Positions 35,030 to 61,512 of a DNA stretch of 64,000 nt are shown one piece after another. This stretch comes from an uncultured Chloroflexia bacterium (lineage in GTDB: Bacteria; Chloroflexota; Limnocylindria; Limnocylindrales; CSP1-4): positions 352,001-416,000 of the forward strand of contig CAVVYR010000006.1 in NCBI GenBank assembly GCA_963752475.1, in the 5' to 3' direction. The notes under the pieces are model-generated. The model was not told where the DNA came from and did not search any database. It worked only from the letters and a program-made list of their open reading frames with translations. Within the stretch, counting starts at the first letter, position 1. Each line of letters opens with the position of its first letter. A program made the translations under genes and the position numbers.

Positions 35030-37511
35030 CAGGTCGAATGTAGCAGGGGTCCACGGGACTGGTGGTCGAGATGGCGGTTCGGCCGCGGCCGCCCGGGCAG
35101 GCATGCGGCAGCCGACCGGTCATCGACGAGGCCGTCACACGAGCTACGCCGTCGAAGCCGACCGAGAGCGTGCCCTGGGTATCCGTCCGCCAGACCTCCG
35201 CTTCGACCGCGGCCAGCCGCTGCAGCGTGGCGTAGGCAGGATGGCCGTAGCTGTTGCCATGCCCGGCACTGATGGCTGCCAGTCGGGGCTCGAGGACGTC
35301 GAGGATGGGCCGGCTCGAGGCCGTGGCGCTGCCGTGATGGGCCACCTTCAGCAGGTCCCAGCGATGGCCGTCATCGGGGATGATCTCGAGCAGGTCCGCG
35401 TCGTGGTCATCCTCGAGGTCTCCGGTGAGCAGGATGCGTTGCCGGCCCAGGCTCACGGCCAGCACGATCGAGGTGCCGTTGATGGCGCGACCGTCGGTGA
35501 TGATGCGATCGGGGATGGTGTGCTCGGGCGGCCAGAGCACATCGACCCGAGCCTCACCCAAGGCGAAGGAGTCGCCCTGGAGCAGGCGCATCCTGCGGAT
35601 GCCTCGTCGTTCGGCAGCAGCGCGTAGTTCGAGCACGCCGGCACCTTCGGAGTTCATCTCGGTCTCGAGGAGCCGGCTCACGCGGTAGCGCGGCGACAGG
35701 CCAGCCAGTCCGCCCGAGTGGTCCTCGTGTGGATGGGTCAGCACGGCCAGGTCGATGTGCCGGTCCCATGCCGGGATGCGCTCATCGAGTCGACGCACCA
35801 GCAGGTCCGGGTCGGGCCCGCCATCGACGAGCAGGCGGGTACCGTCACCGGCCTCGAGCAGGGTCGAGTCACCCTGGCCGACATCGAGCACGCTGACCCT
35901 GAGCTGGGGACCGGGTCTTGCGACGAGCGCGACGGACGTGGCCGCGACGAGCAGGACGGCGACGACCACCACGGGGAGACGGCGGCGGCGCGATCCCGGC
36001 AGCGGCGCGGGTCTCGACGGCTGCCAGGGTCGCGGGGTGCGGCTCGAGGGGCCACGGACGTGTCGCAGCGCGAGTGCCAGGGCCGCCCCCGCGACGGTCG
36101 CCCCGACCAGGTCGAACGGCGGAAGCAGCTCAACGTTGGCGAGCGGTACCTGTGCCAGGATGCCGGCGCCGCGGGTCATCGCCGTGAGCGGGATCCACGC
36201 CGCGACGAGCAGCGGTGCCAGCACCAACGCCGTCAGCGAGCCGGTCACGAGTGGGCCCACCAGCATTCCGACCGCGGCCCCGAGCATGGCCAGCGGCACG
36301 ATCGGCGCCACCAGCAGGTTGGCCAGCGGTGAGATGAGCGACAGCCGCCCGAAGTGGAGCAGGATCAAGGGCAGCGTGGAGAGCTGGGCCGCCAACGACA
36401 CGCCCAGGGTCTCGTCGAACCAGCGCGGGGTGCGGCCGCGCGTCAGGCGCTTCACGGTCGCCTCAGCCGGCCCGCCGAGCGCGAGCAGACCAGCGGTCGC
36501 CGCCAGCGAGAGCTGCAGCCCGATGTCATCGATCATGCCTGGCTGGGCCAGCAACAAGCCCCAGCAGGCGAGCCCCAGCGCCGCCACCGCACCCGAAGGC
36601 CGGCCGCTCTCCCGCGCCACGATGACGACACCACCCATGACTGCGGCACGGATGACGCTCGCCTCAGCGCCTGCGAGGATGGTGTAGACCACGATGGCCA
36701 CGATGACGATGAGGCTGCGCGGACGTCGTCCGAGCCCCGTCGCCCGCAGCATGGCCGTGGCGATGCCGGCCACGAGCGCGATGTTCCAGCCGCTGATAGC
36801 GACCACGTGGGTGAGGCCGGTGACGGTGAAGTCGTCGGCGGTCTCGCGACTGACGCGCTCTCGCAGGCCGATGAGGATGCCCGATGCCAGCCCGGCCTCC
36901 GGCTCGGGGATCGCTCGCGAGAGCGTCTCGTCGAGACCCCAGCGGAGGCTCTCCACGGCGGCGGTGAAGCCGCCGTCACTGCCGACGAGCCGCAGTGCGT
37001 GGCCCTTGAGTGTGCCGGCGGCGCCGCGAGATTCGAGGAAGCCGGCGAAGCCCGGAGCGTCGTCGGGTGGCAGCTGCAGCGTCCCGCGGACTTCGACCGT
37101 ATCGCCGGGCACGAGCGCCGGGTGTCGCGGCAACCAGGCGTAGACGAGCCACTCCCCGTCAGGCTCGGCGTCGAGGCGCACGAAGGCGCGTTGCTCAGCA
37201 CCGGAGGGCGAGGAGACGTCGACGACCGAGCCGACCCACTCGCCGCTCCCTGGCTCGAGCGGTGGTGAGACCGACGCTCCGAGTACCAGCACGGCGCCGA
37301 TCGCGCCCCGCAGCGCGACCGTCCCGAACGCCAGGAGCAGCGCGGTCGCTCCCGCGCGTCGGACGAGCCCGGCCATGAGTGCGCCGAGCAGCGCGGATAT
37401 CGCCAGCGCCAGCGATGCCCATGCCGGCAGTTCGATCCGGTCGCTGCCGGTGAGCAGCGCCGCGAGGATGGAGCCGAAGGCGAGCCAGCCTGCCCGGGGC
37501 AGTCGAGGCAT
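34467..37511 (-). CDS. comEC: DNA uptake channel ComEC/Rec2 (recognisable domains end near 35150)
   Basis: GLTHVVAISGWN, RAAVM, QLS, DVGQGDS, THPHEDHSGG, HHGS, YGHP, RTD..G. Confidence 0.92.
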   Translation of the reverse strand: MPRLPRAGWLAFGSILAALLTGSDRIELPAWASLALAISALLGALMAGLVRRAGATALLLAFGTVALRGAIGAVLVLGASVSPPLEPGSGEWVGSVVDVSSPSGAEQRAFVRLDAEPDGEWLVYAWLPRHPALVPGDTVEVRGTLQLPPDDAPGFAGFLESRGAAGTLKGHALRLVGSDGGFTAAVESLRWGLDETLSRAIPEPEAGLASGILIGLRERVSRETADDFTVTGLTHVVAISGWNIALVAGIATAMLRATGLGRRPRSLIVIVAIVVYTILAGAEASVIRAAVMGGVVIVARESGRPSGAVAALGLACWGLLLAQPGMIDDIGLQLSLAATAGLLALGGPAEATVKRLTRGRTPRWFDETLGVSLAAQLSTLPLILLHFGRLSLISPLANLLVAPIVPLAMLGAAVGMLVGPLVTGSLTALVLAPLLVAAWIPLTAMTRGAGILAQVPLANVELLPPFDLVGATVAGAALALALRHVRGPSSRTPRPWQPSRPAPLPGSRRRRLPVVVVAVLLVAATSVALVARPGPQLRVSVLDVGQGDSTLLEAGDGTRLLVDGGPDPDLLVRRLDERIPAWDRHIDLAVLTHPHEDHSGGLAGLSPRYRVSRLLETEMNSEGAGVLELRAAAERRGIRRMRLLQGDSFALGEARVDVLWPPEHTIPDRIITDGRAINGTSIVLAVSLGRQRILLTGDLEDDHDADLLEIIPDDGHRWDLLKVAHHGSATASSRPILDVLEPRLAAISAGHGNSYGHPAYATLQRLAAVEAEVWRTDTQGTLSVGFDGVARVTASSMTGRLPHACPGGRGRTAISTTSPVDPCYIRPDGGTHPNRSTLPARLDLSLAAPAATHDGRGRGHLVPGLPRLARRSRGRPALGGNGRAPPRRGQGATSGPPRARAGSWRCRRSLADRGRASGVGTHAHRPSGDPLHRSRRRSLADRGSARGAHRDLRGQARHAACRLAGATLRSLAPQAPRIPRQAGRGVPGGTAPRSRTVHRHRHRAHRCRAAALGR

Positions 37512-37520
37512 GCGCTGTCG

Positions 37521-38220
37521 CTAGCCGGCGCTGACGAGGCCCTTGATGTCCTCGTAGACCTTCTCGCCCACGATGCCCCGGCTACGCAGCTCACGGACGG
37601 CATCGAAGCGATCGTCAGCCCGGGTGTCGATGATCTTGCCCGCGGTCACCGGGCCGATCCCCGGGAGCGTCTCGAGCTCCGACTGGCTGGCCCGGTTGAG
37701 GTCGATGCGTCCATCATCCCTGGCCGCAGCGCGCGCCGACGGCCGGTCGACGCCCAGCTCCGGCACGAGCACCTTGGACCCGTCCTCGAGTGGCTGGGCC
37801 AGGTTCAGCGACTGGCTCGAGGCGGTCAGGTCCGCACGTGGCGCGAAGCCACCGGCAGCCTCGATGGCGTCACCGACGCGGTCTCCGTGACGCAGGCGGT
37901 GTAGCCCAGGCCGCACGACGGCACCGGCGACGTCGACGACGATCTCCGTCGACGCCGGCGCCGCGATGGGCGTCGTCTCGAACGTCGAGACACCCAGCGG
38001 CCTCCACTCGTGGCGACCCGTCGACTCCCACCGGCAGCGCTCCCAGGGCCAGGGCCACCAGGCCGGCGATCGCCATGCCGAGTCCCAGCCCACCGCACCC
38101 GGCAAGCGCCGGCGCGAGCCATCGCGGCATGACCCGACGCTGGTCCGGTCCTGGCTGGGCGTCGTTCGCATCGGCCGCGTCTGACGAGAACGCGCGCCAC
38201 GGCGGCGTCGCCTGGTTCAA
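37521..38220 (-). CDS. comEA: ComEA DNA-binding protein (one apparent frameshift near 38000)
   Basis: VDVAGAV.RPG SLBB, NLA..L.DG, HhH LPGIGPV.A; TM segment in the upstream frame. Confidence 0.85.
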
Positions 38221-38310
38221 GCGATCGCTCCTGCCGGCGGGCGAGGGCGGGGCGGAGGTGGTCGCGCCCCGGGCTCCGTGGCCGAGAGTGCGGTCGGTCC
38301 CGGGGCGTGA

Positions 38311-38344
38311 AGAAAGGCTAGGGGGCGCCGCTTGGCGCCCCCTT
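38311..38344 (-). terminator. Intrinsic terminator after the LLM genes
   Basis: GGGGGCGCC-AAGC-GGCGCCCCC hairpin followed by TAGCCTTTCTT on the minus strand. Confidence 0.6.
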
Positions 38345-38364
38345 ATGCCTGCCTTCGGTGGGAC

Positions 38365-39351
38365 TTAGACGAGTGCCTCCAGCGCCGGTCGCACCTCGGT
38401 CGCGAGCCGGCGCATGGTCTCCTGGTCGTACGGCGCCGGGAATCCGCAGATGAGGTGGCGGTAGCCCATCTCGACGAACGGCTTCAACTGCTCGGCGACC
38501 TCGTCGGGCTTGCCAGCGACCAGCCTTCTCGTGGGCACGTGACCCGATCCCGGCCGATCCTCGTCGAGGCAGGACTCACCGCGAGCCAGCAGCTCCTCGG
38601 CCACGGCCACGGCCTCGTCCCGGCTGTCGCGGATGACCACCATCTGGATCTCGGTCGTGCGCTCGATCGTCTTCTCGTTGCGCCCGAGTCGCTCGCAGTG
38701 CTCGCGCATGATCGGGTCGGACTTCTCGATGGTCTCGATGGGGTTGCCCAGGTTGTTCATGTCGGCGTACTGGGCCACCAGGCGCAGCGTGACCTTGGGG
38801 CCGGAGCCGCCGATCATGATGGGGATCCTCGACTGGATCGGCGCGGGCAGGTTGAGCGCCTCCTTGACGTCGTAGCGATCGCCCTCGTCGGATGACGGTC
38901 GCTCGCCCGCGAGCATGCCGGTGATGATCTTGAGCGAGTGCTCCAGCCAGCGCAGGCGCGTCCCCGGACGATCACCGAACTCGATGCCGAAGCCGGTGTG
39001 CTCGGGCTCCATCCAGGCGGCACCCATACCCAGCACGGCTCGCCCGTTGCTGATGTGGTCGATGGTCGTGATCATCTTGGCCACGAGCGCGGGGTTGCGG
39101 AAGGTGTTGGCCGTGACGAGGTGGCCGATGGTCGCACGCTTCGTCTGCGCCGCCACCGCGGCCATGGCCGTGTAGGTCTCGAGCGCCGGCCCTTCCCACG
39201 AGCCGATGATGGGGTACACGTGGTCCCAGGTGAAGAGCGAGTCGTAGCCGAGCTCGTCGGCTTCGATCATGGCCTCAAGGAAGCGGGGCCAATCGGTGTA
39301 CTGGTTCCAGAGGTTGACGCCGAGCTTGATCGGCGCGTTCATGTCGGGCAT
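38365..39351 (-). CDS. LLM-class (probably F420-dependent) oxidoreductase, paralog 3
   Basis: WDH, NTFRNPA, DHISNGR..LG.GAAW, IGGSG.K.TL. Confidence 0.9.
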   Translation of the reverse strand: MPDMNAPIKLGVNLWNQYTDWPRFLEAMIEADELGYDSLFTWDHVYPIIGSWEGPALETYTAMAAVAAQTKRATIGHLVTANTFRNPALVAKMITTIDHISNGRAVLGMGAAWMEPEHTGFGIEFGDRPGTRLRWLEHSLKIITGMLAGERPSSDEGDRYDVKEALNLPAPIQSRIPIMIGGSGPKVTLRLVAQYADMNNLGNPIETIEKSDPIMREHCERLGRNEKTIERTTEIQMVVIRDSRDEAVAVAEELLARGESCLDEDRPGSGHVPTRRLVAGKPDEVAEQLKPFVEMGYRHLICGFPAPYDQETMRRLATEVRPALEALV

Positions 39352-39368
39352 CGGGGACTCCTTCGGGA

Positions 39369-40325
39369 CTACTGGGCGAGATAGGCTTCGAGCTCCGGCC
39401 GCACCTCGGTCGCGAGGCGCTCGAGCGTCTCTTCGTCGTAGGGGGCAGGGAAGCCGAAGATGAGGTGGCGGTAGCCCTGGTCGAGGTAGGGCTTGCAATG
39501 CTCGACGATGTGCGAGGGATGGCCCACGGGCATGTCCGTCCAGGTCTTGGCGCCGCCGTTATCGGCGAAGACGTCAGCCATGACCGTGAAGGCCTCCTCG
39601 CGCGAGTCGCGGATGAAGGGTGAGCCCAGGCCGATCGTGCGCTCGATCGTCTGCTCGTCGCGTCCCACGTCCTCGCAGTGCGCGATGAGCGCGGCGTCCT
39701 TCTCGGGCAGATCGGCGGCTGCGCCGCCGAGGTTGTTCATGTCCGCGTACTGGGCCACGAGGCGCAGGGTCTTGCGTCGGCCGGACCCGCCGATGAGGAT
39801 GGGCACGTGCTCCCCGATAGGTGCGGGCAGGTTGAGCGCCTCGCGCGTGCCGTAGCGCCCGTCCGTGGTGGGCCGCTCACCGTCGAGCATGCCGCGCATG
39901 ATGGGCAGCGCCTCCGCCAACCAGCCGATGCGCTCGCCGGGGCTGCCCCCGAACTCCAGCCCGAAGGCCTCGTGCTCGGTCTCGAACCAGGCGGCGCCGA
40001 TACCGAGGACGGCCCGACCGCCGGAGATGTGGTCGAGCGTGGTCACCATCTTGGCCACGAGCGCAGGGTTGCGGAACGTGTTCGCCCCGACGAGCAGGCC
40101 GATCGAGGCGCTCTTCGTCGTCGTCGCCACCGCGGCCATGGCCGTGTAGCACTCGAAGATGGGGCCTTCGTGGGAGCCCACGATGGGGTAGAGGTGGTCC
40201 CAGGTCCAGATACTGTCGAAGCCGAGCTCGTCAGCGCGCTGCTGTGCACGGAGGAACGAGGGCCAGTCGCTGTACTGGTTCCAGTTGTTGATGCCCAGCT
40301 TGAGCGGGGCGTTCATGTCGGGCAT
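39369..40325 (-). CDS. LLM-class oxidoreductase, paralog 2
   Basis: Same motifs; starts MPDMNAP. Confidence 0.9.
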   Translation of the reverse strand: MPDMNAPLKLGINNWNQYSDWPSFLRAQQRADELGFDSIWTWDHLYPIVGSHEGPIFECYTAMAAVATTTKSASIGLLVGANTFRNPALVAKMVTTLDHISGGRAVLGIGAAWFETEHEAFGLEFGGSPGERIGWLAEALPIMRGMLDGERPTTDGRYGTREALNLPAPIGEHVPILIGGSGRRKTLRLVAQYADMNNLGGAAADLPEKDAALIAHCEDVGRDEQTIERTIGLGSPFIRDSREEAFTVMADVFADNGGAKTWTDMPVGHPSHIVEHCKPYLDQGYRHLIFGFPAPYDEETLERLATEVRPELEAYLAQ

Positions 40326-40338
40326 CGGTCTCTCCGTC

Positions 40339-41292
40339 TCAGCTGACCATGGCCTCGAGCCGCGGGCGAACCTCTGTCGCCAAGCGGACCATGGTCTCCT
40401 CGTCGTATGGCGCCGGCCAGTAGAAGACGAGGTGCCGATACCCGAGCTCGACGTAGCGCGCGAGCCACTCGAAGACGTCCTCTGGCGTGCCCGTGGGCTG
40501 GTTCTTCCAGGTCTCGCCTTCCTGGGCCGCGAAGATGGCGTCCTTGTCGCGGAAGGCCTGCGCGCGTGAGTCGCGGATGGTGGGCACGCCCACGTCGATG
40601 CTGCGCTCGATCGTCTTCTCATCGCGGCCGATGGCTTCGCAGTGGTCGATGAGGATGGCGTCCTTCTCGGCCACGTGGGCCGGCGAGCCGCCGATGTTGC
40701 ACATGTCGGCGTACTCGGCCACGAGGCGCAGCGTGACCTTGGGGCCAGAGCCGCCGATGAGCAGCGGCATCCGCTTCTGGACCGGCGGCGGCACGTTGTA
40801 GGCGTCCTTGATCTGGTAGTGCGGGCCGCTCGAGCTGGGCTGCGTGCCGTCGAGCATGCCGCGCATCACCGGCAGCGCTTCCTTCAGCCAGCGCAGCCGC
40901 TCACCCGGGCCGCTCCCGAACTCGAAGCCGTAGCCCTCGTGCTCATGCTCGGCCCAGCCGGCACCGACGCCGAGGATCGCCCGCCCGTCGCTGATGTGAT
41001 CGATGGTGGTGATGATCTTCGTCAACATCGCGGGGTTGCGGTACGTGTTCGAGGCCACCATCACGCTGATGGTCGGCTTCGAGGTCACCTCGGCGATGGC
41101 TGACATGACCGAGAAGGCCTCGAAGATGGGCCCGTCCGAGGGCTTGTTGGGCGGGTAGATATGGTCCATCGTCCAGAGCGACTCGTAGCCCAATCCTTCG
41201 GCCCGCAGGTGTGTGGCCTTGAAGGCCGGCCAGCCGGTGTACTGGTTCCAGATGTCGGCGCCGAGCTTGATGGGCGCATTCATGTCGGGCAT
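40339..41292 (-). CDS. LLM-class oxidoreductase, paralog 1
   Basis: Same motifs; starts MPDMNAP. Confidence 0.9.
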   Translation of the reverse strand: MPDMNAPIKLGADIWNQYTGWPAFKATHLRAEGLGYESLWTMDHIYPPNKPSDGPIFEAFSVMSAIAEVTSKPTISVMVASNTYRNPAMLTKIITTIDHISDGRAILGVGAGWAEHEHEGYGFEFGSGPGERLRWLKEALPVMRGMLDGTQPSSSGPHYQIKDAYNVPPPVQKRMPLLIGGSGPKVTLRLVAEYADMCNIGGSPAHVAEKDAILIDHCEAIGRDEKTIERSIDVGVPTIRDSRAQAFRDKDAIFAAQEGETWKNQPTGTPEDVFEWLARYVELGYRHLVFYWPAPYDEETMVRLATEVRPRLEAMVS

Positions 41293-41360: not shown

Positions 41361-42512
41361 TCAGTCGGTCGCGATAAGCTGGGCCACGACCTCGTTGAAG
41401 AGCGCGGGCCAGCCGAGATAGTCGAGCGAGCCGTACGTCCGCCCGAAGCGCGCGATGACGATGTCAGAGACCGGGTCGACGTAGATGAACTGACCGTGGT
41501 TGCCGATGGCGCTGAAGGCATCGCTGTCGGGCAAAGTCCACCAGAAGGCCTGGAGCTCCTCGGCCGGATCGTCCGTCGCGTCCACGGCTGTGGCCCACTC
41601 GACCCACTCGGCCGGCCCGACCTGCTCGCCGTTCAGGCGACCCTCATCGGCGAAGAGGAGCCCGAGCTTCATGAGGTCGACCGCACGGCCGTTGATGCCG
41701 CTCTCCATCTTCTCGAAGCCGGATTCCTCGCTGTCCAGGCTCCACGAGCCCTCGGCCTCGGCGCCGAACGGCTGCCACAGGCGGGACTCGAGGTAGGTGG
41801 CAACCGGCATCCCGGTCGCGCGATCGAGGATCATCCCGATGAGCAGCGGGTTGTAGTTGTTGTAGAGGAAGGTCTGGCCCGGTGGCTCAACGATCTCCGC
41901 GCTCAATGCCGACGCGCGCAGGTCCGGTGCGTAGTACGTCGCAGCTTGGTCGCCCCACGGCGGGAACTCTTCGTAGCGCAGGCCGGAGCTCATGTGGATG
42001 AGGTCGGCGATGGTGATCTCGGCGAAGCGTTCGTCACGCTCGAGCAGCTCAGGGATGTGCTCGGTCACCGCGTCGTCGAGTGAGAGCAGCCCTTCGTCGT
42101 CGGCGATACCTACGAGGGTCGATGCGAACGACTTGGCCGTGGAGAACGAGGTCTGGATCGACTCGCGGACGGCATCGCCGAAGTACTCCTCCAAGATGAG
42201 CCTGCCGTCGCGGGCGACTAGGAAGGCCTCGGTGTCATTCTCTGCGAGGAACTCCAGCAGCGGGGTGCCTTCGATCTCGATAGACATGACCGCAGCATCA
42301 GGCTGCTCCGGAGGAGACAGCTCGAGGGGTTCGTCGGCCGGGGCCAGCGTCCGCATCGGGAAGCGCTGCCAGTCGTCGGTGTCGGCTTCGAGCCAGGCGA
42401 TGACGCGCGCGGTCTGGGAGGTGTCCGTGTTCGCCTGCGCCCAGGCATAGACGCCGACGACCGCCGGGGCGATGACGAGGACGACGAGCCCGAGGGCCTT
42501 CAGCCAGCGCAT
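41361..42512 (-). CDS. Membrane-anchored serine hydrolase (beta-lactamase class C/NylB-like)
   Basis: FSTAKS (SxxK), FLYNN (YxN), HMSSGL; N-terminal TM. Confidence 0.9.
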   Translation of the reverse strand: MRWLKALGLVVLVIAPAVVGVYAWAQANTDTSQTARVIAWLEADTDDWQRFPMRTLAPADEPLELSPPEQPDAAVMSIEIEGTPLLEFLAENDTEAFLVARDGRLILEEYFGDAVRESIQTSFSTAKSFASTLVGIADDEGLLSLDDAVTEHIPELLERDERFAEITIADLIHMSSGLRYEEFPPWGDQAATYYAPDLRASALSAEIVEPPGQTFLYNNYNPLLIGMILDRATGMPVATYLESRLWQPFGAEAEGSWSLDSEESGFEKMESGINGRAVDLMKLGLLFADEGRLNGEQVGPAEWVEWATAVDATDDPAEELQAFWWTLPDSDAFSAIGNHGQFIYVDPVSDIVIARFGRTYGSLDYLGWPALFNEVVAQLIATD

Positions 42513-42542
42513 GGTGCGTGGAGCCTAGCTCGGTGCCGCCAC

Positions 42543-42722
42543 CTAGCGGACGACGATGTTGACCAGCCGTCCACTGACGCGGATGACCTTGACCACGGTC
42601 TTGCCCTCGAGGTTGGCTCGCACCTTGGGCTGGGCGATGACGATCGCTTCGATCTCGTCCTGCGGCAGGCCAGGGGCGACCTGCACCTTGTCGCGCAGCT
42701 TGCCGTTGACCTGCACTGGGAG
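42543..42722 (-). pseudogene. leuS: Orphan 3' fragment (59 codons) of leucyl-tRNA synthetase
   Basis: Translates LPVQVNGKLRDKVQV...KVIRVSGRLVNIVVR*, the LeuRS C-terminal domain; in-frame TGA just upstream; not in the ORF track. Confidence 0.88.
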
Positions 42723-42763
42723 GCCAACCCATCACGCAAGCGGTCGGTCAGGTGACCAGATGT

Positions 42764-43609
42764 TTACACGCGAGGCTCATGAGGCTGCCGTGGATGAGGT
42801 TCCTGCCGATGCACGGTATCGGCGCGCATCGGCTGGGCCTCCTCTTCCTCCTCCTGCCGATGCACGGTATCGGCGCGCATCGGCTGGGCCTCCTCTTCCT
42901 CCTCCTGCCGATGCACGGTATCGGCGCGCATCGGCTGGGCCTCCTCTTCCTCCTCCTGCCGATGCACGGTATCGGCGCGCATCGGCTGGGCCTCCTCTTC
43001 CTCCTCCTGCCGATGCACGGTATCGGCGCGCATCGGCTGGGCCTCCTCTTCCTCCTCCTGCCGATGCACGGCACTCGTGCCGAGCCCGGACCCTGCTGCA
43101 CCTGCGTGGCTGGCCGAGTGAGCTGCCTGTGCTGCTTGCTGCTCGGCCGGGCTGTTGGGAGAGCTGACCCGTGTGGGGCGGGTCGTCCCGGACTCGGCAT
43201 GCTGCCTGACGTGCGTGAGTTCATGGCGCAGCATCGCCTGGCCCTCGGCTGAGCCCAGATGAGGGGCGTTGCCGGCCAGGAAGATATCTCGTCCGTAGGT
43301 GAAGGCGACCGCACCCAGCTCGCGACTCAACTGGGCCGCGGTGCCGTCGTCGTGGATACGCACATCTGCGCCGGCACTCGTAGACCGCGCTGTTCCCGCT
43401 GCCTCCGCGAGTGGTTTCCCGCTACCCAGCTCATTCTCGATCGTGTCGCTGGTCCTTGGGTCCAACAACTGACCCATGCCAGAGTTGCCGACCGTGCCTC
43501 GGACATCATCTACGGGCTCGTGATCCGCGCTCGTGCCGGGGTGTCGCTCCTGACGGGCCCTGTTGACGTGGTGCGGATCCGCGGCCATCCGCTCTCGGTC
43601 GTACGACAT
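42764..43609 (-). CDS. DUF4157 (eCIS core domain) protein with an acidic repeat tail
   Basis: G.PL, VRIHDD, A.AFTYGRDIF, LRHELTHVRQ, E.QA. Confidence 0.85.
   Translation of the reverse strand: MSYDRERMAADPHHVNRARQERHPGTSADHEPVDDVRGTVGNSGMGQLLDPRTSDTIENELGSGKPLAEAAGTARSTSAGADVRIHDDGTAAQLSRELGAVAFTYGRDIFLAGNAPHLGSAEGQAMLRHELTHVRQHAESGTTRPTRVSSPNSPAEQQAAQAAHSASHAGAAGSGLGTSAVHRQEEEEEAQPMRADTVHRQEEEEEAQPMRADTVHRQEEEEEAQPMRADTVHRQEEEEEAQPMRADTVHRQEEEEEAQPMRADTVHRQEPHPRQPHEPRV
42801..43071. repeat. Perfect 51-bp tandem repeat, about 5.3 copies (QEEEEEAQPMRADTVHR)
   Basis: Identical units starting 42801, 42852, 42903, 42954, 43005 and a partial one at 43056. Confidence 0.95.
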
Positions 43610-43891
43610 GGCCCGAGGGTGCGCTCTTCGGCGTGTCTTCGCTAGGTCCCCACAGGCCACGAGTCGTGCACGTCGATGTACCCGAAGGGGCAGATTCCGC
43701 TGGCTCGATATCAGGTGCAACGCGGGCACGACACCTTGCCGGATCGCCCATCGCCGGCTGGTGCCTTCGGCTTCGTCCGCCGTTGACGCCACGGCTCCCG
43801 TTGCCCAGAAGGGTGGACACGACAGGCCCCACGGACGACAATGTCCGCCTTGCTCAAGCACGCATGAGACGGCGATCGGAAGAGCAGGTCG

Positions 43892-46870
43892 ATGTCACGG
43901 GCAGCTCGCTCTCAGGAAAGGCGGCGGCCGCTTGACGCTGTCAGTCGACGGCTGTCGACACCACGCATCGAACTGATGCCGATCGAGAGGCTCACGGCCC
44001 GTCTCGCTGCGATATGGGAGCACAGGATCGGTATCGTCGTCGCACCACCCGGCAGTGGCAAGACGACGCTGCTGGCCATGTTCGCCGAGCGTGTCGCCGA
44101 TCCTGTGGCCTGGATCCGGTGCGACCGCTGGGATACGACCGAATCGGCGCTGGTCAGGCAGCTGGCGGACGCGCTCGAACCATGGATCGATGGGGCGGGC
44201 GACTGGACGGATGTGGACGATGCCACGGCGGGTCTCATCCGATGGGATCCCCGCCGAGCCCTCATCGTCATCGATGATTTGCACGCACTCGACGGCAGCC
44301 GCGCCGAGATGTGCCTAGAGCAACTGCTGGACCATCTGCCCGATGGGGTCCATCTGCTCGTTGCCTCGCGCACGCAGCCGGCATTCAATCTTTCGCGTCT
44401 CCGCCTGTCAGGCGATCTCCTCGAGATCGGCGCTGACGACCTGCGTCTCCGCACCTGGGAGGTAGAGCGGCTCTTCCGGGACCACTACCGCGAGCCGATG
44501 GCCCCCGAGGAGCTGGCTCGTCTGGCATGGTGGACACACGGCTGGGCGGCGGGACTCCAGCTGTTCCACCTGGCCACACGGGGCCGCCCCGCGGACGAAC
44601 GGCGACGTGTGCTCGGCTCGCTTGGTCCCCGTTCGCGCCTGGCACGCCAGTATCTCGCCCAGAACGCGCTCGACCGCGTACCTGACGCACTCAGATCCTT
44701 CATGGTGCACTCGTCCGTATCCAGCCGTCTGAGTGGTCGCATCTGTGACCGTCTACTTGGCCGGACCGGAAGTGCGCGAGTCCTTGACGAGCTCGAGCGT
44801 CGGAGTCTGTTCACGACCAGGATCGACGAGGCCGGCAACTACCGCTATCACGAGGTCTTCCGCTCACACCTCCAGGGCGTACTCATGAGCGAGGTCGGAG
44901 AAGATGGCGCTCGCGCACGGTTCATCTCGGCGGGCGACATCCTCATGGAGGAGGGGACCGCTGCCGAGGCGCTGGAAGCCTACGTCCGCGCCGAGGCCTG
45001 GGAGGTCGTCGGACGTATCCTCGCCGAGCAGGGGCCGGCGATCGCTGACGAACCGTTCGGCTGGCTCGGCGTGCGCGCCATGGAGCCGCTGGTCGACGAT
45101 CCCTGGTTGGCGCTTGCCGGCGCCCGACGGCTGCGGGCCGAGGGACGCTTCGGAGAAGCTGTGAAGGCCTTCGCGGTTCTGGCGGCCGACGTTCGGCAGA
45201 TCGAGGCTGCTGCCGCGGCGGGTCGGGAACGCGCCGAGCTGCTGACCTGGCTGCAACCAGGGTCCGGCCGTGAGCCAAGGCCGATGACGTTCTGGTGGGC
45301 CGCACTGCGCCGAGCCGTCGCGGGATCCACGATCGACGTCGCAGAAGTGGCCGATCGCGGCATCAACGGGCAGCTGATGGCAGCACTCTGCTCGATCGTG
45401 GATGGCGACCTGGCAGCGGCAGATCGCCGATTGATGGCCCTCGAGAAGGTCGCCGATGCCGAAGGTGTTGCGCCTTGCATCGGGGCCATGGCGCGTGGGG
45501 CCATCGCCCTGCTGGGAGGCGACGAGGAAGGGATCATCGGCATCAACGGCGCCATCGGCGCTGCCGAGGGTCAGGGCTTCGACTGGGTCGCACGTGTGGG
45601 CAGCGCGCTGCTGGCTCTCAGTGGCAGGCTCGACTATCTCCATGAAGCAGCCCGCCTGGAGGACGCGGCTCGCACTCTTGGCGATCCATGGGGTGCGGCA
45701 CTCGCATGCATCGGACGTGCCTGGGGAGCGTTGGTCGCCGCTTGCGGCTCCGGGCCAGTGAGTGAGCAATTCGAGCCTGTGGACCTCGCAGAGTCGGCGA
45801 GGCGGCAGTTCCGGGCACTGGAAGCGCCTGTGCTGGAGGCGTGGTCTGCATCGATCGCCGCCGTTGGCCGAGCCGTCACCGGCATGGACGGTCGAGCCGA
45901 GGCGACGGCTGCCGAGGCGTTCGCGAGCGCCATCGGCGCCCATGTGCCGGGGCTCCTGGCTCGCACCGCACTCGCGCAAGAGCGTGGCGATGGCCACGAG
46001 ACGCGGAGGTTGGTCGGCCAGCTGCAGCGCTGCGGTTGGCGAGTACCGCTGCCCGATGCGTCGACGGTTGCGCTGCCAACCGTCCACGTCGAGCGAGAAG
46101 CCATGGCGGTGAGGTCTGCCGCTGCTGCGCCTGTGCCACCGGCTAGATTGCGTCTGTTCGGCGCCTTCCATCTGGAGATCGGAGGCGAGGCAATCGACAG
46201 CCAGGCTATCCGGTCGCGCGTGCGAGCGTTGCTCTACCTCCTGGCGCTGCATGCCGACAGGCCAGTACATCGCGAAACCATCATGGAGACGTTGTGGCCG
46301 GAGTCTGAGCCGACTGCAGCCGCTAGGAGCCTGTATGTCGCAGTGGCGACCCTGCGTCGTGTCCTCGAACCTACCGCCTCGCGTCGTGGCTTCCGGTTCG
46401 TCCCTCACGAGGGCGACGGCTACCGGCTGGCGCTGCCAGCCGGCTCGCTCGTCGACACGATAGCGTTCGAAGAGGCATCAGCCGCAGCGCATGCCGCCCA
46501 TGATCGTGGACGGCCAGACGACGTCATGCGTTGGTGCCGCGTGGCGCTCGAGCACAATCGCGGCGAACTCATCCCTGAGGCCGGGCCGGCAGATTGGATC
46601 GATGGCCCGCGCGAGTCGTACCGTCTCGAGGCGGTCGAGCTGGCCACGATGCTGGCGGATACCCTCAGTCGGGAGGGGAGCTACCAAGCGGCCGTGACCG
46701 CCTGTCTCCAGGGACTCGATCACGACCGGTTCCACGATCCTCTGTGGCGGATCCTCATCGAAGCGCGCGAAGCCGACGGCGACCCTGCTGCAGCAGACGC
46801 TGCGCGCTCGAGATACCGAAGAGCTCTCGCCGATCTAGGCCTCGTAGCCGCCGAGGGCAGCTCCGCCTAG
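43892..46870 (+). CDS. MalT-like ATPase + C-terminal wHTH-BTAD transcriptional regulator
   Basis: APPGSGKTT, IDDLH, T.GWAAGL, YRYH; C-terminal LRLFG.F, RE...E.LWP, LRR.LEP, BTAD helices. Confidence 0.88.
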   Translation: MSRAARSQERRRPLDAVSRRLSTPRIELMPIERLTARLAAIWEHRIGIVVAPPGSGKTTLLAMFAERVADPVAWIRCDRWDTTESALVRQLADALEPWIDGAGDWTDVDDATAGLIRWDPRRALIVIDDLHALDGSRAEMCLEQLLDHLPDGVHLLVASRTQPAFNLSRLRLSGDLLEIGADDLRLRTWEVERLFRDHYREPMAPEELARLAWWTHGWAAGLQLFHLATRGRPADERRRVLGSLGPRSRLARQYLAQNALDRVPDALRSFMVHSSVSSRLSGRICDRLLGRTGSARVLDELERRSLFTTRIDEAGNYRYHEVFRSHLQGVLMSEVGEDGARARFISAGDILMEEGTAAEALEAYVRAEAWEVVGRILAEQGPAIADEPFGWLGVRAMEPLVDDPWLALAGARRLRAEGRFGEAVKAFAVLAADVRQIEAAAAAGRERAELLTWLQPGSGREPRPMTFWWAALRRAVAGSTIDVAEVADRGINGQLMAALCSIVDGDLAAADRRLMALEKVADAEGVAPCIGAMARGAIALLGGDEEGIIGINGAIGAAEGQGFDWVARVGSALLALSGRLDYLHEAARLEDAARTLGDPWGAALACIGRAWGALVAACGSGPVSEQFEPVDLAESARRQFRALEAPVLEAWSASIAAVGRAVTGMDGRAEATAAEAFASAIGAHVPGLLARTALAQERGDGHETRRLVGQLQRCGWRVPLPDASTVALPTVHVEREAMAVRSAAAAPVPPARLRLFGAFHLEIGGEAIDSQAIRSRVRALLYLLALHADRPVHRETIMETLWPESEPTAAARSLYVAVATLRRVLEPTASRRGFRFVPHEGDGYRLALPAGSLVDTIAFEEASAAAHAAHDRGRPDDVMRWCRVALEHNRGELIPEAGPADWIDGPRESYRLEAVELATMLADTLSREGSYQAAVTACLQGLDHDRFHDPLWRILIEAREADGDPAAADAARSRYRRALADLGLVAAEGSSA

Positions 46871-47919
46871 TCGGCCCCCTCGAAGAACTTGACCTCGCGT
46901 ATGGCGATCTCGTCGTCGCTGTCGGTGCCGCGGTAGCGCGAGAGCACGATCAGCCTCAGTGACTTCACCCCCGGCAGATCGATGTCGACTGGCTGCTGGT
47001 CGGGCGTGTCCCTTAGCTCGTAGACGGAGCTTGTCTCGTCGTTGGCCTTGAGCCGGAACCGGAACGGCCTGCCAAGCCGCTCGTACGCTGCGCCATCAGC
47101 GCCGCTGTCGAAGTTGACCTGGAGCAGGTCGGCCGGCCGTTGGAACTCGAAGTCGACGACCCAACGGTCGTTCCGGTTCCGCGATCCGACCCAGTAGCTG
47201 TTCCCGCTGCCATCGATGAGGTTGGTCGCTGGGAACTCGGGGTGCGCCTGGCCCTGCGCGGCGATGGCTCGGACCTCCTCGGGCCGCAGGAAGCGTCGCT
47301 GCACAGTGCGCACCGTGTCATCCACAGCATCGCTGACGCCGGGCATGTAGAGGTAGGAGGCGATACCGCCGAGGCCGATGACACCCAGGAGTCCAAAGAC
47401 CATCATCGTGGACCCTGGTCGCCAACGCGCACCAGCAGTGAGCATCGTATCCGGTCGCTGGCCGGCCATGTAGGCTTCCTGCCTGCCGCGATGCACAATC
47501 CCCGGAAGCCACGACCGACGGCGCTTCGACTCAGTTGGAGGCGGTGGCGCCTCGGTCGCAGCGTCGTCCATCACTGTGCCGCAGCGGCGGCAGAACTTGC
47601 GGTCACGGTCATTGCCTGTTCCGCAGGCCGCACACACGAACTGGCCCGGTTCCGGCCTCTCCGGAGCGCTCGGCGGCTGTGGCTTGGCCTTGCGCACCGA
47701 GGTCGTCTCGCCCTTCGCCGGCTTGCGCGCCTGGGGTCCGGTCTCAGGAGTCTCGGAGGGCGGCAGGTCGCTTCTCGCCGGGGCCTCGTCCGCCTCGGTT
47801 CCCGTCTGCTCGACGTCCTGCTCCACGTGTGCGCCGCTCCACTCCAGGAAAGCGTCGCACTGGCTGCAGAAGCTGGCACCGGCCCCGTTGAGGGTCCCGC
47901 ACTTCTCACATCGGATCAT
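46867..47919 (-). CDS. Zn-ribbon/TM/discoidin-like protein (CisA-like membrane adaptor)
   Basis: Two C..CG..N.....FC..C ribbons, one TM helix, C-terminal NLIDG...YW beta-sandwich; lies after the baseplate genes. Confidence 0.7.
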   Translation of the reverse strand: MIRCEKCGTLNGAGASFCSQCDAFLEWSGAHVEQDVEQTGTEADEAPARSDLPPSETPETGPQARKPAKGETTSVRKAKPQPPSAPERPEPGQFVCAACGTGNDRDRKFCRRCGTVMDDAATEAPPPPTESKRRRSWLPGIVHRGRQEAYMAGQRPDTMLTAGARWRPGSTMMVFGLLGVIGLGGIASYLYMPGVSDAVDDTVRTVQRRFLRPEEVRAIAAQGQAHPEFPATNLIDGSGNSYWVGSRNRNDRWVVDFEFQRPADLLQVNFDSGADGAAYERLGRPFRFRLKANDETSSVYELRDTPDQQPVDIDLPGVKSLRLIVLSRYRGTDSDDEIAIREVKFFEGAD

Positions 47920-48010
47920 GGGCTCGCGTCCACGGTGACCTCCCGGCATCGACAGGCCAGATGGTAGCGCTCCGCTCCATGGCCATCGAGTCAAGTGCCC
48001 GCAGCAGGGT

Positions 48011-48562
48011 CTACTCCCCGCCCACGGCCGTGGCGACACGGACTCGGTGGACGACGTGCGCCGGCTTGGCCGCAGCCACGAGTGCGTCCAATCGCTCCAC
48101 GTCGATCGGGGCGTCGGTGCCGCGCACCCGCACCTCGATCCGGTACCCTGGGCGACCGGGCAAGTCCTCGCCGTTACGGTTCGACCAGGACACGCCACCG
48201 GTCTCGAGGATCTCGACATCGCCGCCGGTGAAGATCCGCACGTGCGCTGACAAGCCCGCCGCTGTGCCGCGGAGCCGGTAGAGCTCAGCGGCATTGGCCA
48301 CGAACTCACGCCTTCGCTCGATGGGCCAGTTCTCGTCGAGTAGCACGCCCACCCAGCCGGCGAGCCAGTCGAGGAAGTCGTCAGGTGTCAGCGAGGGATC
48401 AAGGTAGGCGGGTAGGTTGTCGAGCGCCAGGAACACAGGGACCAGGGTCTCGTCGATAGCCGACAGCCAGCGCCTCGTGAGGTCGTCCTCCTGGTAGAGG
48501 CCGGGCATCCCCTCGATGAGCGGATGAGGACTGCGAATGGCCCCCAGCGTGCCCCTTCTCAT
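48011..48562 (-). CDS. CIS baseplate wedge protein (P2 gpI-like tail protein)
   Basis: YLDP..TP.DFL.WLA.W, LYR.RGT..GL, KPAH. Confidence 0.9.
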   Translation of the reverse strand: MRRGTLGAIRSPHPLIEGMPGLYQEDDLTRRWLSAIDETLVPVFLALDNLPAYLDPSLTPDDFLDWLAGWVGVLLDENWPIERRREFVANAAELYRLRGTAAGLSAHVRIFTGGDVEILETGGVSWSNRNGEDLPGRPGYRIEVRVRGTDAPIDVERLDALVAAAKPAHVVHRVRVATAVGGE

Positions 48563-50508
48563 GGGCCCACCGCCACGACTTGGTGCTCGTAGCTGAAGAC
48601 GAGAGCGTGCGGCTCGACCTCGAGGCGGTCCGTCGCCTTGCCGCGTTCACCGGTGATGGGATCCGCACCGAAGACCTTCACCTCTTCCACCAGCTCGACC
48701 CCGCGCACGCGGCCGAGCACGGCGAAGACCTCACCCGCCAGCACCGGCCGACCGAACGGCCAGCCCTCACCGTCAGGTCCACCGAGGGTGGGGTGGAAGT
48801 AGCGGAAGAGGGCCTCGGTGGCGGCGTCCTGGAGCCGCTCTGGATCGAAGAGGCTACGGGCCCGCAGGCGGCCCACGACCGTCACGCCGCGGTAGACCGG
48901 AGGTTCGACGGCGATGCGTGTGCCCAGTAGTCGGCTTTCGTCGAGCCGGCGCGCCACGCGTTGCAGGGTGGCTTCGCTCGGCAACAGCGCGTCGAACCGA
49001 ACCTCGCTCTCAGACGCGATCGAAGGCACGACCAGAACACGCACACCGCCTGCATCAGTGCCATCACCGGCCACGACGCAGTGGACTCGCGCGAGCTCGG
49101 GCGCAGCCTCGCGGGCCAGGTGTTCGAAGTCCTCGGCTGTGACCGCTCGGTCGCGTGTGCGCAGCAGCACCGGTCCCCGGACCTTGGCGTCTTCGATGTC
49201 CTCGCCGTCCACGCCACCGCGGGCCGCTCGGCGGTTCTCGATGCGAGCGACGTAGGGGATCGACGACTTGAGCACGCTGATGGCCCGGGCGGTGACGTTG
49301 CCACGTACTCCACCGCCGGTACGGTACAGGGGCACCCTCACGGTCGAGCCCGCGGCCGGTACGGCACCGTGCTGTTGGATCGCGCCGTCGGCCATGCGCA
49401 CTGCCGGTCCGAATTGGATCTCGGCGCTCACCGCATCGAGCAAGACGTGGCGGTCCTGCGGGCCGCTGCCGGCGAAGCTGTGGGCCTCGGGCTGGGTCCA
49501 TGACTGCCAGCCCTCGTCGGAGGAGACCTCCACCTTGAAGGGCTCGTCGGAGGGGATCACTGGACTGTGCAGGAGTGTGAAGGTGTTGCCGGGCGCGCCA
49601 TCGGCGGTGCCCACGACCTCATTGGCCACACGTTCGGAGTTGCCGGCCGCAACGGTGCCTCCGATGGTGAAGGCACTGATGCTGTGGATTTCCGGGCTCG
49701 CGCTGTAGACGGGCTGGTTCTCGACCGGTGGCACGACACGGGCGCGGACCCAACCGGCGTGCCGGCCGTCGATGACCGAGGCCTCGTGTCCATCCGGCAC
49801 GTGCAAGGTGATGTCGCCGTCGCGGTTGAGCCCGCCGGTACCGTCGCTCTCGACCTCGCAGACCGTCCAGGTCTCGCCGACCCACGCCTCCCACACTAGG
49901 GGAGGGAAGTCGGGATCGACGCCCACGCCCTCGATGCGGCAGGACAGTCGCACGCAGACCGCGCACGAAGGCACGGCCTTGTCGAGCCCGACGTAGAGCG
50001 CGTCGCCGGGTTTGGGCACCTCGTCGAAGCAATAGAAGCTGTTGCCCAGCGCCAGTGCATCGTCATGCGTCCGGTAGCCGTCGTCGCTGACGCTCGACAG
50101 CGCGTGGTCGTACTCGCAGGGCAGGATCTCCAGCTCGCGAGTCGTCTCGAAGACGATGGCCGGATCGTGGGCCGAGCGCGGTGTGGCCACCTGCGTGCCC
50201 GCGGTCACGGATACGGTGTCGGATTGTGGTGCAGAGAGCCAGAAGGTGACCTCCGTCCGTGCTTCCGCCGGCGGGAAGAGCTTCACGCCGATGAGCTCGA
50301 GGAACTTGACGTAGTTGCGCTCCGGCACGCGGTTGAGCCGGTAGAGCAGTTGGTCGGTCATCCACGCGAAGGTCTCGATGAGCGTGACTCCGGGATCTGA
50401 GACGTTGTGGTCCGTCCACTCCGGGCAGCGTTGCTGGACCAGGCGTTTGGCGTCGTCGACCAAGTCCTGGAAGCGGCGATCGTCGAGGTTCGGCGCCTGC
50501 AAGGACAT
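48559..50508 (-). CDS. CIS baseplate J-like assembly protein
   Basis: PNLDDRRFQDLVD, WTDHNVSDPG.TL.E, RAVT.EDFE, GWPFGR. Confidence 0.95.
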   Translation of the reverse strand: MSLQAPNLDDRRFQDLVDDAKRLVQQRCPEWTDHNVSDPGVTLIETFAWMTDQLLYRLNRVPERNYVKFLELIGVKLFPPAEARTEVTFWLSAPQSDTVSVTAGTQVATPRSAHDPAIVFETTRELEILPCEYDHALSSVSDDGYRTHDDALALGNSFYCFDEVPKPGDALYVGLDKAVPSCAVCVRLSCRIEGVGVDPDFPPLVWEAWVGETWTVCEVESDGTGGLNRDGDITLHVPDGHEASVIDGRHAGWVRARVVPPVENQPVYSASPEIHSISAFTIGGTVAAGNSERVANEVVGTADGAPGNTFTLLHSPVIPSDEPFKVEVSSDEGWQSWTQPEAHSFAGSGPQDRHVLLDAVSAEIQFGPAVRMADGAIQQHGAVPAAGSTVRVPLYRTGGGVRGNVTARAISVLKSSIPYVARIENRRAARGGVDGEDIEDAKVRGPVLLRTRDRAVTAEDFEHLAREAAPELARVHCVVAGDGTDAGGVRVLVVPSIASESEVRFDALLPSEATLQRVARRLDESRLLGTRIAVEPPVYRGVTVVGRLRARSLFDPERLQDAATEALFRYFHPTLGGPDGEGWPFGRPVLAGEVFAVLGRVRGVELVEEVKVFGADPITGERGKATDRLEVEPHALVFSYEHQVVAVGP

Positions 50509-50509
50509 C

Positions 50510-50914
50510 TCAATCCTCCTCGGGGATCACGTAGAACGGGAAGACCAGGTTGCGGGGATCATTGCTGGCCTTGATCGAGTAGCGGATGTCGATGTAGAGC
50601 AGGCTGTGGTCGACATCGTCGATGGTCACGTCCACGTCCTGCACGTCGACACGCGGCTCCCAGCGCTTGAGCGAGCGGCGCACCTCGAAGCCCATCTGGG
50701 CAGCAGTGCTGGCGTCGGCTCCGGCATACACGAAGTCGTGGATGGCACAGCCGAACTCCGGGCGCATCGGCCGCTCGCCGTAGGCGGTGCCGAGGATGAG
50801 ACGGATGGATTCCTCGACCTCGCGCTCCTGTCCCACCAGGGCGATGTCCCCGCTCGCGCCGGCACGCAGGGGGAAGGCCCACCCGCGGCCGACGAACTCA
50901 CGTGCGTTGGTCAT
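50510..50914 (-). CDS. GPW/gp25-family baseplate protein
   Basis: G.GWAFP, GERPMRPEFGC, WEPRV, NLVFPFY. Confidence 0.95.
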   Translation of the reverse strand: MTNAREFVGRGWAFPLRAGASGDIALVGQEREVEESIRLILGTAYGERPMRPEFGCAIHDFVYAGADASTAAQMGFEVRRSLKRWEPRVDVQDVDVTIDDVDHSLLYIDIRYSIKASNDPRNLVFPFYVIPEED

Positions 50915-50917
50915 GAC

Positions 50918-51304
50918 CTAGCCCACCAGTACCGTGGATTGGCTCGGCACGAGCGCACCCGGTGTCGCGCAGCAGGTGACCCTGGCCGATGTGTTGACCG
51001 CCGGTTTGCCCCCGAAGAGCACCGTGGGCGATCCACTGACGACACGGCCGACCTGCATCGGCGGGGCCATGAACGGGTCGCTCGCATGCAACCCGACGTG
51101 GGGTGGGGTGTTCATGCCCGACGAGCCGACCACTGCGGTCGGTTTGCCGCCGATGAGCACAGTCGTCTCGAGGCCCTGGAGCAATGGCGCGGAGAAGGGC
51201 ATGGGCGGGGCCGGTTGCGGCACGCCGCTGGCGGGGTTGGGGATCTGGTGGATGGCGCAGGTGCCGGTGATACGGTCGCTCATGACGATGGCGGGTGATC
51301 CCAT
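50918..51304 (-). CDS. PAAR-like spike tip protein
   Basis: Repeated TVLIGGKP, GSPTVL.GGKPA; C/H Zn ligands. Confidence 0.88.
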   Translation of the reverse strand: MGSPAIVMSDRITGTCAIHQIPNPASGVPQPAPPMPFSAPLLQGLETTVLIGGKPTAVVGSSGMNTPPHVGLHASDPFMAPPMQVGRVVSGSPTVLFGGKPAVNTSARVTCCATPGALVPSQSTVLVG

Positions 51305-51314
51305 GGCCGGCTCC

Positions 51315-53045: not shown

Positions 53046-53055
53046 GCTCCACCTC

Positions 53056-54191: not shown

Positions 54192-54202
54192 GTTCCCTCT
54201 CC

Positions 54203-56407: not shown

Positions 56408-56410
56408 GGG

Positions 56411-56569
56411 CTAGGCCTCCTCTGAGATGCGACGATTGATCTGGGCGATCTCCTCGACGAAGCGCTGTCTGTCCGGGTGCTCCAGATCGAGGACCTCTTC
56501 GAGCGACCAGTGCATGTGGTACGAGACGTACGCGATCTCCTCGAAGAGTCGGTCGGTCGCGTACGTCAC
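56411..56569 (-). CDS. DUF6760-type small tail-assembly protein (gpT-like)
   Basis: Y..D.L.EE.AY..YH.HW.L...LDLEH..R..F..EI. Confidence 0.85.
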   Translation of the reverse strand: MTYATDRLFEEIAYVSYHMHWSLEEVLDLEHPDRQRFVEEIAQINRRISEEA

Positions 56570-57449: not shown

Positions 57450-57501
57450 CTGGTGTGGCTCCTTTCAATCGCGTCGTCCGGGTGTGAGGAGAAGGGCGGT
57501 C

Positions 57502-61494: not shown

Positions 61495-61512
61495 TCCCGC
61501 TGCCGGCTGGCG

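Follow-up and report, generated by a model that had tools for sequence, protein, structure and literature searches.

The window analysed here is a stretch of 64,000 nucleotides (G000:C6:352001-416000) on the 863-kb contig C6 of G000, a metagenome-assembled genome (38 contigs, 4.25 Mb, 88.8% complete, 5.8% contamination). It contains, beside the genes of an extracellular contractile injection system (eCIS), a detached 3' end of leuS, the gene for leucyl-tRNA synthetase (LeuRS), and our concern is with how this end came to lie there. The material comprises a Pfam scan with curated cut-offs of 39 open reading frames (ORFs) across the island and its flanks, searches of the 48 other genomes of the genus, with 29 leuS loci fetched with 1.5-kb flanks and 12 with 20 kb downstream, and a check of public reads through the Logan contigs (contigs, not raw reads) of runs X1-X4 over window positions 40500-45000. 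The features that meet at the junction are, in window coordinates unless stated otherwise:

41361..42512, minus strand: beta-lactamase-family serine hydrolase gene (PF00144, E 1.1e-36), its 5' end duplicated beside the intact leuS.
42388..42722 (C6:394388-394722), minus strand: X_L, the repeat copy at the leuS fragment, 335 bp comprising the leuS 3' end, a 30-bp spacer and the first ~44 hydrolase codons (blastn).
C6:439078-439411, outside the window: X_R, the partner of X_L, at the intact leuS.
42543..42722, minus strand: leuS 3' fragment, the last 59 codons and a TAG stop (translation and homology).
42723..42800, minus strand: junction filler, from the end of the tandem repeat to the leuS fragment, holding a new eCIS_core stop (42764-42766) and an in-frame TGA (42732-42734).
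42764..43861, minus strand: eCIS_core (DUF4157) gene, ending after acidic repeats (PF13699, E 1.8e-17).
42801..43071, inside the eCIS_core gene: tandem repeat of 51 bp x 5.3 copies, 271 bp, 100% perfect, encoding (QEEEEEAQPMRADTVHR)n.

The peptide of the fragment is LPVQVNGKLRDKVQVAPGLPQDEIEAIVIAQPKVRANLEGKTVVKVIRVSGRLVNIVVR followed by a stop, and the minus-strand translation of 42543-42800 reads ...PLA*WVG LPVQVNGKLRDKVQVAPGLPQDEIEAIVIAQPKVRANLEGKTVVKVIRVSGRLVNIVVR*. The in-frame TGA stands three codons upstream of the fragment, the sole start is an internal GTG, and both the catalytic part and any LeuRS sequence before that TGA are missing, so that what remains is not a full-length LeuRS. 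Its homology to the LeuRS C-terminus is clear: it aligns without gaps with the C-termini of all 29 relatives fetched, it matches 44 of the 48 other genus genomes in six frames (E <= 0.001, 63-90% identity, best E 1.8e-28), with E 1e-19 to 1e-28 for those relatives, and it shares 50/59 residues with the intact LeuRS of G000. The initial annotation had described a start-less, codon-intact LeuRS C-terminal end that adjoins injection-system DNA and lies upstream of comEA-comEC-holA, and this description holds: 59 codons and a stop are found at 42543-42722, the eCIS_core gene is directly upstream on the minus strand, and ComEA-like, ComEC and DNA polymerase III delta genes follow downstream. Its extent had been given as 42543..42765, which is right at the start and slightly overshoots at the end, as leuS similarity fades at ~42733.

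Three residues of the fragment (I29, R48 and S50) are unseen in the 29 relatives, against which its nucleotide sequence has five private states and the intact end one. The private changes include M->I, H->R and G->S replacements at invariant or nearly invariant residues, which points to decay, and there is also an excess of third-position differences that is consistent against every relative. The fragment fits a pseudogene drifted by ~3%, and the 57-codon ORF annotated on it in the public record is a remnant of this kind and not a gene. An exact-protein look-up found the hydrolase, the 57-aa ORF of the fragment and LeuRS on record only from contig C6; the truncated eCIS_core protein has no record, and the look-up returned no independent assembly.

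An intact leuS had been predicted beyond the window, together with a direct repeat of the CTCCCAGTGCAGGTCAACGGCAAG region, and both were found. The sole leuS of the G000 genome lies at C6:439232-441799 (window-equivalent 87232-89799), on the same contig and strand as the fragment according to a family search and a reading of the contig. Its product has the tRNA-synt_1, tRNA-synt_1_2 and Anticodon_1 domains, its stop is 44,689 bp from that of the fragment, and a diverged copy of the CTCCCAGTGCAGGTCAACGGCAAG region forms its 3' end. The injection-system island occupies the interval between the two leuS ends, as had also been proposed and as the Pfam scan confirms.

X_L and X_R are direct repeats that bracket 44,356 bp and are 75.9% identical over 340 columns (blastn, E 8e-65). 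Identity is unevenly spread among the blocks, with 156/180 in the leuS end, 17/32 in the spacer and 84/125 in the hydrolase 5' part, and the longest identical runs (27, 37 and 22 nt) are uninformative as an attachment (att) core because they lie in codons conserved across the genus. The two borders are reciprocal: on one side the intact leuS precedes a 5' remnant of the hydrolase gene, on the other the leuS remnant precedes the intact hydrolase gene. Similarity continues for ~155 bp past the leuS stop, through the spacer and into the next gene. The hydrolase remnant beside leuS has a coding-like GC content at third codon positions (GC3, 0.89) for 45 codons, followed by ~130 codons with a non-coding-like pattern and then by an effector-like ORF; the 571-codon frame that runs on from the hydrolase-like start would be a false fusion if called one gene. 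A tRNA-Ala(GGC) gene lies directly upstream of leuS (C6:441895-441970, L005:11895-11970, minus strand). It was the only candidate for a tRNA gene as alternative att site, and was set aside as lying upstream of leuS, away from the island borders.

The island-side border of the fragment is of another kind. The eCIS_core protein of G000 stops 13 residues past its acidic ADTVHRQEEE repeats; its ortholog in G054, a relative with a syntenic island, runs ~125 residues further, so that the G000 gene is truncated at the junction. Its stop is 41 nt from the leuS fragment. The filler of 41-78 nt is unique in the 4.25-Mb assembly, is unlike the leuS upstream sequence of G000, G048, G005 and G014, is unlike the continuation of eCIS_core in G054, and holds only a small palindrome; no promoter-like or terminator-like sites were found in 42300-43000. 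A truncated gene followed by unique filler is what an illegitimate joint leaves behind, not what an att site bounding an element would look like. As regards the tandem repeat itself, the G054 ortholog has only imperfect ADTVHRQEEE copies in place of the perfect 51-bp repeat of G000, which suggests that the G000 copies expanded or were homogenised recently, or that the assembly has affected them.

The two leuS ends differ at 22/177 coding positions (4, 3 and 15 at codon positions 1, 2 and 3), with no indel or stop within the 59 codons of the fragment. This third-position pattern fits divergence as functioning genes. Because the differences fall mostly at third codon positions, the copies stem from two lineages of one subclade and not from a duplication within the genome. 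They differ from G014 at 18 and 14 positions and from G005 at 21 and 16, as against 22 between themselves. Compared with the relatives, the fragment has 88-90% identity and the intact end 89-92%. Maximum-likelihood analysis of 31 sequences places both copies in an unresolved G048/G014/G005 group, where they are not sisters, the fragment pairing weakly with G005 (support 89/40). Identity profiles in sliding windows along leuS favoured neither copy as the native one.

In the genus as a whole, the leuS locus is a variable spot. LeuRS was found in 45/48 of the other genomes, and the first luciferase-like gene is within ~170 bp of leuS in G005, G009, G060 and G024, and within 1.5 kb in six others among the 29 loci. 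Empty-site relatives had been anticipated, and in the first four genomes leuS does lie beside luciferase-like genes; the exact leuS-hydrolase state that would have preceded the insertion was found nowhere. In eleven of the 12 relatives with extended regions, variable DNA of 1-13 kb separates leuS from the luciferase-like genes, and comEA, comEC and holA follow as in G000. Other genes occupy 1-3 kb after leuS in nine genomes, and in several relatives the variable DNA is a gene for a ~320-aa double-zinc-ribbon protein, whose start coincides with the leuS stop or lies no more than ~30 nt from it. Of the 49 genus genomes, G000 alone has another, detached leuS end on the contig that carries leuS. 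G053 has a second copy of the end on another contig, joined to leuS-like sequence broken by TGA codons, and G015 and G022 have split pieces of one leuS gene.

The twelfth extended genome, G054, carries a syntenic eCIS island at the leuS locus. There, leuS is followed by the native zinc-ribbon gene, a zinc-ribbon paralog, unknown genes as in G000, a LuxR gene, an AAA ATPase, Pvc16_N and fibres, then by sheath through baseplate, the regulator and the eCIS_core gene, with luciferase-like genes 115 bp on. Protein identity between the two islands is 37% for the second eCIS_core protein (N-terminal part), 63-64% for the terminal eCIS_core protein and the regulator, and 91-95% for sheath and tube. 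The G054 locus lacks the hydrolase gene, and a second leuS end and a flanking repeat are likewise absent from it. More widely, the sheath protein was found in 12/48 other genus genomes, and in both of the genomes examined that have it on large contigs, G057 and G019, the syntenic eCIS module lies in loci without leuS, luciferase-like or comE genes.

A second relative shows a different cargo at the same place. In G059 a 10.8-kb insert of sugar-use genes starts nine codons into the zinc-ribbon gene (L044, G059:C3:62250-82249), with a transposase remnant, a sugar-phosphate isomerase-like gene, a dehydrogenase, ABC transporter parts and a Gfo/Idh/MocA oxidoreductase. It is bounded by a repeat of 51 bp, 84% identical, made of the last ~27 nt of leuS and the zinc-ribbon start (positions 189-239 and 11013-11063 in leuS orientation, the reverse complement of L044). 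The G059 insert is a scar of the same kind as that of G000, with another repeat length. The 51- and 335-bp repeats differ in length, yet both span the leuS stop and the next start, which favours insertion by homology at a hotspot over a single recombinase acting on one core.

Taken together, these observations make it, in our view, somewhat more likely than not that the fragment was left when DNA of a related species was joined to the chromosome by one homologous and one illegitimate joint. The island has one homologous border, one border with a truncated gene and filler, and no recombinase of its own among those searched for. The order of events that we infer would be as follows. DNA of a related species of the same subclade would have entered the cell, carrying a leuS 3' end, the spacer, a hydrolase 5' remnant and the island. 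Homologous exchange by host recombination would then have taken place in leuS or in the leuS/hydrolase junction, and an illegitimate joint would have linked the middle of eCIS_core, via a few dozen filler bases, to the resident leuS ~190 bp before its stop. An eCIS island of ~44 kb would thereby have been inserted between leuS and the following hydrolase gene without an integrase, leaving leuS intact, ~335 bp doubled, the leuS piece decaying and the hydrolase 5' piece dead. Two routes would lead there: a linear fragment undergoing homology-facilitated illegitimate recombination anchored by leuS homology, or an illegitimately closed circle entering by a Campbell-type single crossover in the repeat. 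Both share the same topology and are equally compatible with the sequence, which cannot separate them. Natural transformation is a plausible route of entry because ComEA-like and ComEC genes are present. The topology of the end product also implies that the donor would have been a related species already carrying the island next to a leuS-hydrolase junction and, as no leuS-hydrolase genome was found, the arrangements of donor and recipient are both read from G000.

Several observations weigh against this explanation. The arrangement expected before the insertion, with the hydrolase gene directly after leuS, was met in none of 24 genus genomes, 29 leuS loci, 12 extended regions, and 48 metagenome and 15 species-representative hydrolase loci. 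In fact, the 24 genus genomes hold no ortholog of the hydrolase (together with 16 genomes of other families they gave only 29-31% matches), no hydrolase gene lies downstream of leuS in any of the fetched loci, and the best public relative, at 76%, sits between LuxR-type and cyclase-like genes on a 4.8-kb metagenome contig (L055); none of the 48 metagenome loci has leuS, nor has any of the 15 species-representative loci, the best of which is 57% identical. The tree is a polytomy that does not identify the native copy, and a scan for mosaic breakpoints in leuS, with p = 0.003 before correction over ~73 breakpoints, is not significant after it. The GC content of the island is no outlier (67.4% versus 68.2% for the genome, 12th percentile of 645 windows); GC3 is 0.72-0.85 in island genes versus 0.86-0.93 in the flanks, which is weak evidence. 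No listed Logan contig, the best run being X1, bridges 42717-42915, so that the junction is without read verification, although the hole itself proves nothing. Its identical 27-, 37- and 22-nt blocks would allow the repeat to function as the att core of a lost or trans-acting recombinase. Finally, the leuS locus of G059 has a tyrosine recombinase gene (L044:7167-8402, PF00589, E 8e-28), which interrupts the displaced zinc-ribbon gene outside the repeat-bounded insert, and which keeps a site-specific contribution open.

The last two points speak for the alternative that the initial annotation had put forward, in which leuS is the attB site of an integrase-driven element. Such an element would have an attP mimicking the leuS 3' end, its integrase having been lost, lying elsewhere or acting in trans. 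It accounts for a leuS kept whole by a second, diverged 3' end with the displaced end at the far side of the island, it could appeal to the tyrosine recombinase within the leuS-to-luciferase-gene interval of G059, and the G000 genome is only 88.8% complete. We nevertheless consider it unlikely. The integrase expected beyond the window did not materialise: the Pfam scan of 39 ORFs found only the IS21 proteins IstA/IstB, the 863-kb contig has no tyrosine or serine recombinase, and a six-frame search of the genome placed PF00589 only on C14 and C1 and PF00239 nowhere, other recombinase families not being covered in six frames. The repeat enters the next gene, ~155 bp beyond the leuS stop, an extension that restoring leuS does not need, and the terminal gene of the island is truncated and followed by filler. 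The G054 island occupies the same locus with neither a second leuS end nor a flanking repeat, and the G059 repeat differs in length and extent, with the integrase of that locus outside the insert. A literature search found no leuS integration site, the leuS mentions retrieved being of a typing gene or an entry in a virulence list, which is not proof of absence.

A second alternative is that C6 is an assembly chimera, in which sequences of two co-occurring relatives were linked close to the 51-bp tandem repeat. The 5.8% contamination of the genome, the 271 bp of perfect copies and the strain variants on the flank in X1 contigs (17 differences in 854 nt) all leave room for it, and because the public contigs leave the junction unbridged it keeps a formal, if small, probability. 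The X1 contigs cover 40568-42716 and 43093-45000, and none listed covers 42765-42915. Some contigs of X1-X3 match the fragment up to 42716 and then diverge from the window; one loose contig end, compared by eye as reverse complement, resembles upstream LeuRS coding sequence, and these contigs are taken to be the intact leuS of relatives. A 140-nt X1 contig is identical to the fragment over 129 nt (42588-42716), at ~2x the depth of its neighbours, and diverges at both ends, departing from the window at 42716; a co-occurring relative may carry an intact leuS with the 42588-42716 stretch. What makes a chimera very unlikely, in our opinion, is the filler, which is found nowhere else in the assembly and is unlike either candidate parent, as an assembler would not invent such sequence. 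There is also no shared word at the leuS-side boundary to mislead an assembler, the substitutions that only the fragment has at conserved residues agree with a genuine pseudogene, and G054, an independent genome, has the same large-scale order of leuS, island with eCIS_core last, luciferase-like genes, comEA, comEC and holA.

An old duplication in place, that is, a 335-bp target duplication with later divergence and possibly a later allelic replacement of leuS, would agree with the direct repeats that staggered or replicative insertion can yield and with the decay of the fragment, but it is the least probable of the specific alternatives, as 15/22 leuS differences are at third positions with no indel or stop in 59 codons, each leuS copy has closer counterparts in other species than in its partner, and the hydrolase 5' parts, 84/125 identical yet in frame, have diverged far beyond the ~3% private change of the fragment. 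The remaining weight goes to multi-step histories beyond reconstruction.

The scar described here, with one homologous and one illegitimate joint, has precedents. In naturally transformable Acinetobacter and in Streptococcus pneumoniae, homology-facilitated illegitimate recombination combines one homologous anchor with one illegitimate joint; it requires no enzyme encoded by the element, and filler or microhomology marks the illegitimate joint. The G000 locus resembles it in having an anchor and an illegitimate joint with filler, and in lying beside ComEA and ComEC genes. It differs in that the 44-kb insert is at the upper end of the sizes known for such events; the mechanism is read from the end product here, in an uncultured organism of putative competence.

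The G000 island also bears comparison with genomic islands of the SGI1 type, an example of which, SGI1 at trmE, is described in PMC8409611 as an island at the 3' end of a housekeeping protein gene to which it supplies a replacement end. As in islands of that type, an essential gene is kept whole through a substitute 3' end, the leftover end lies at the far border, and the cargo lies between direct repeats. SGI1-type islands, however, encode or rely on a dedicated integrase with a short conserved core, whereas G000 has no recombinase found, a 335-bp repeat of 76% identity that extends into the next gene, and a truncated gene with filler.

As to eCIS loci, Geller et al. (2021, PMC8213781) report signatures of chromosomal integration for eCIS operons, including likely homologous recombination between duplicated tRNA genes, and count among the typical features of these loci DUF4157, BTAD and GerE regulators and 3'-end toxins. 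The G000 island shares these features, having DUF4157, BTAD/GerE regulators and 3'-end toxins. Their example concerns identical tRNA genes, whereas in G000 the repeat is made of a leuS 3' end and the start of the next gene, in copies of two lineages. Integration signatures of eCIS operons were already known, and G000 is a further, well-delimited case of moderate to low surprise.

If our explanation is right, G000 offers a dated and physically delimited case in which a chromosomal hotspot acquired a complete contractile injection system with no mobility gene involved. The borders of the island are known to a few bases, and the decaying leuS end and the dead hydrolase start could be used as internal clocks. 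A broader idea, to which we attach a tentative and rather doubtful status, is that the boundary between leuS and the next gene is a recurrent, integrase-independent landing pad in the genus, where islands such as the eCIS of G000 and the sugar-use genes of G059 travel between species with a 'homology handle' composed of the leuS 3' end and the beginning of the adjoining gene, and insert by host recombination, perhaps after natural transformation. Were this so, selection to keep leuS whole would ensure a productive joint, an injection machine could spread without mobility genes of its own, and there would be a simple route for the spread of islands among related uncultured bacteria.

The rest of the island and its chromosomal flank hold the following features within the window:

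33264..41292, minus strand: chromosomal flank, three luciferase-like monooxygenase genes, then ComEA-like, ComEC and DNA polymerase III delta (Pfam).
43892..46870, plus strand: AAA_16 / Trans_reg_C / BTAD regulator (Pfam), with a 64% identical homolog in the same relative place in G054.
46867..59025, minus strand: eCIS structural operon (Pfam), syntenic in G054, G057 and G019.
59143..63664: a 783-aa protein without Pfam match (plus strand) and three collagen-repeat proteins (minus strand).
63814..64000, plus strand: start of a Pvc16_N (DUF4255) gene that runs off the window (Pfam).

The structural operon encodes a zinc-ribbon/F5_F8-like protein, Tail_P2_I, Baseplate_J, GPW_gp25, PAAR, a VgrG-like spike, CIS_tube, gp19 tubes (two of gp19 type), the second eCIS_core protein and the sheath. 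Beyond the window the island continues for 23 kb with an AAA ATPase, LuxR, RTX proteins, IS21, a zinc-ribbon paralog, effector-like ORFs, X_R and leuS; in all it has two RTX-repeat proteins and two eCIS_core proteins. Sheath, tube, gp25, J, PAAR spike, Pvc16_N/DUF4255, AAA ATPase and DUF4157 are thus present in one locus (Pfam), and the island holds a complete eCIS according to the list of core domains given in PMC8213781.

The three consecutive proteins with collagen triple-helix repeats, at 61513-63664 beside the sheath operon, have counterparts in G054 that are 33-54% identical, and are possibly tail fibres. The IS21 element is at L004:5715-8104 (window-equivalent 69715-72104) and comprises IstA, with rve and Mu-transposase C-terminal domains, and IstB; its GC3 of 0.90 is above that of its neighbours. 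It was considered as a mobiliser of the island and rejected, being present in a single copy in the assembly and internal to the island.

Closer to leuS, a very long PEPT (TPEPTPEP...) repeat at C6:431500-432600 (L005:1500-2600) is flanked by a zinc-ribbon N-terminus (L005:2504-3046) on one side and a 277-aa C-terminal ORF (L005:596-1429) on the other. The three appear to form a single gene, distantly paralogous to the native zinc-ribbon gene found after leuS in relatives, and the reading frame of the repeat may be broken or mis-assembled. Several ORFs of the island have no Pfam match, and three of them, beside leuS (L005:4118-4891, plus strand; 5884-7305 and 7493-8851, minus strand), have a putative N-terminal LQRxxGNxA-like motif, of a type that occurs in DUF4157-associated proteins. 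These three are likely variable eCIS cargo, as they have no homologs in the G054 island. On the chromosomal flank, the three tandem luciferase-like paralogs at 38365-41292 share 50-60% identity with one another, and their order downstream of leuS is kept across most of the genus.

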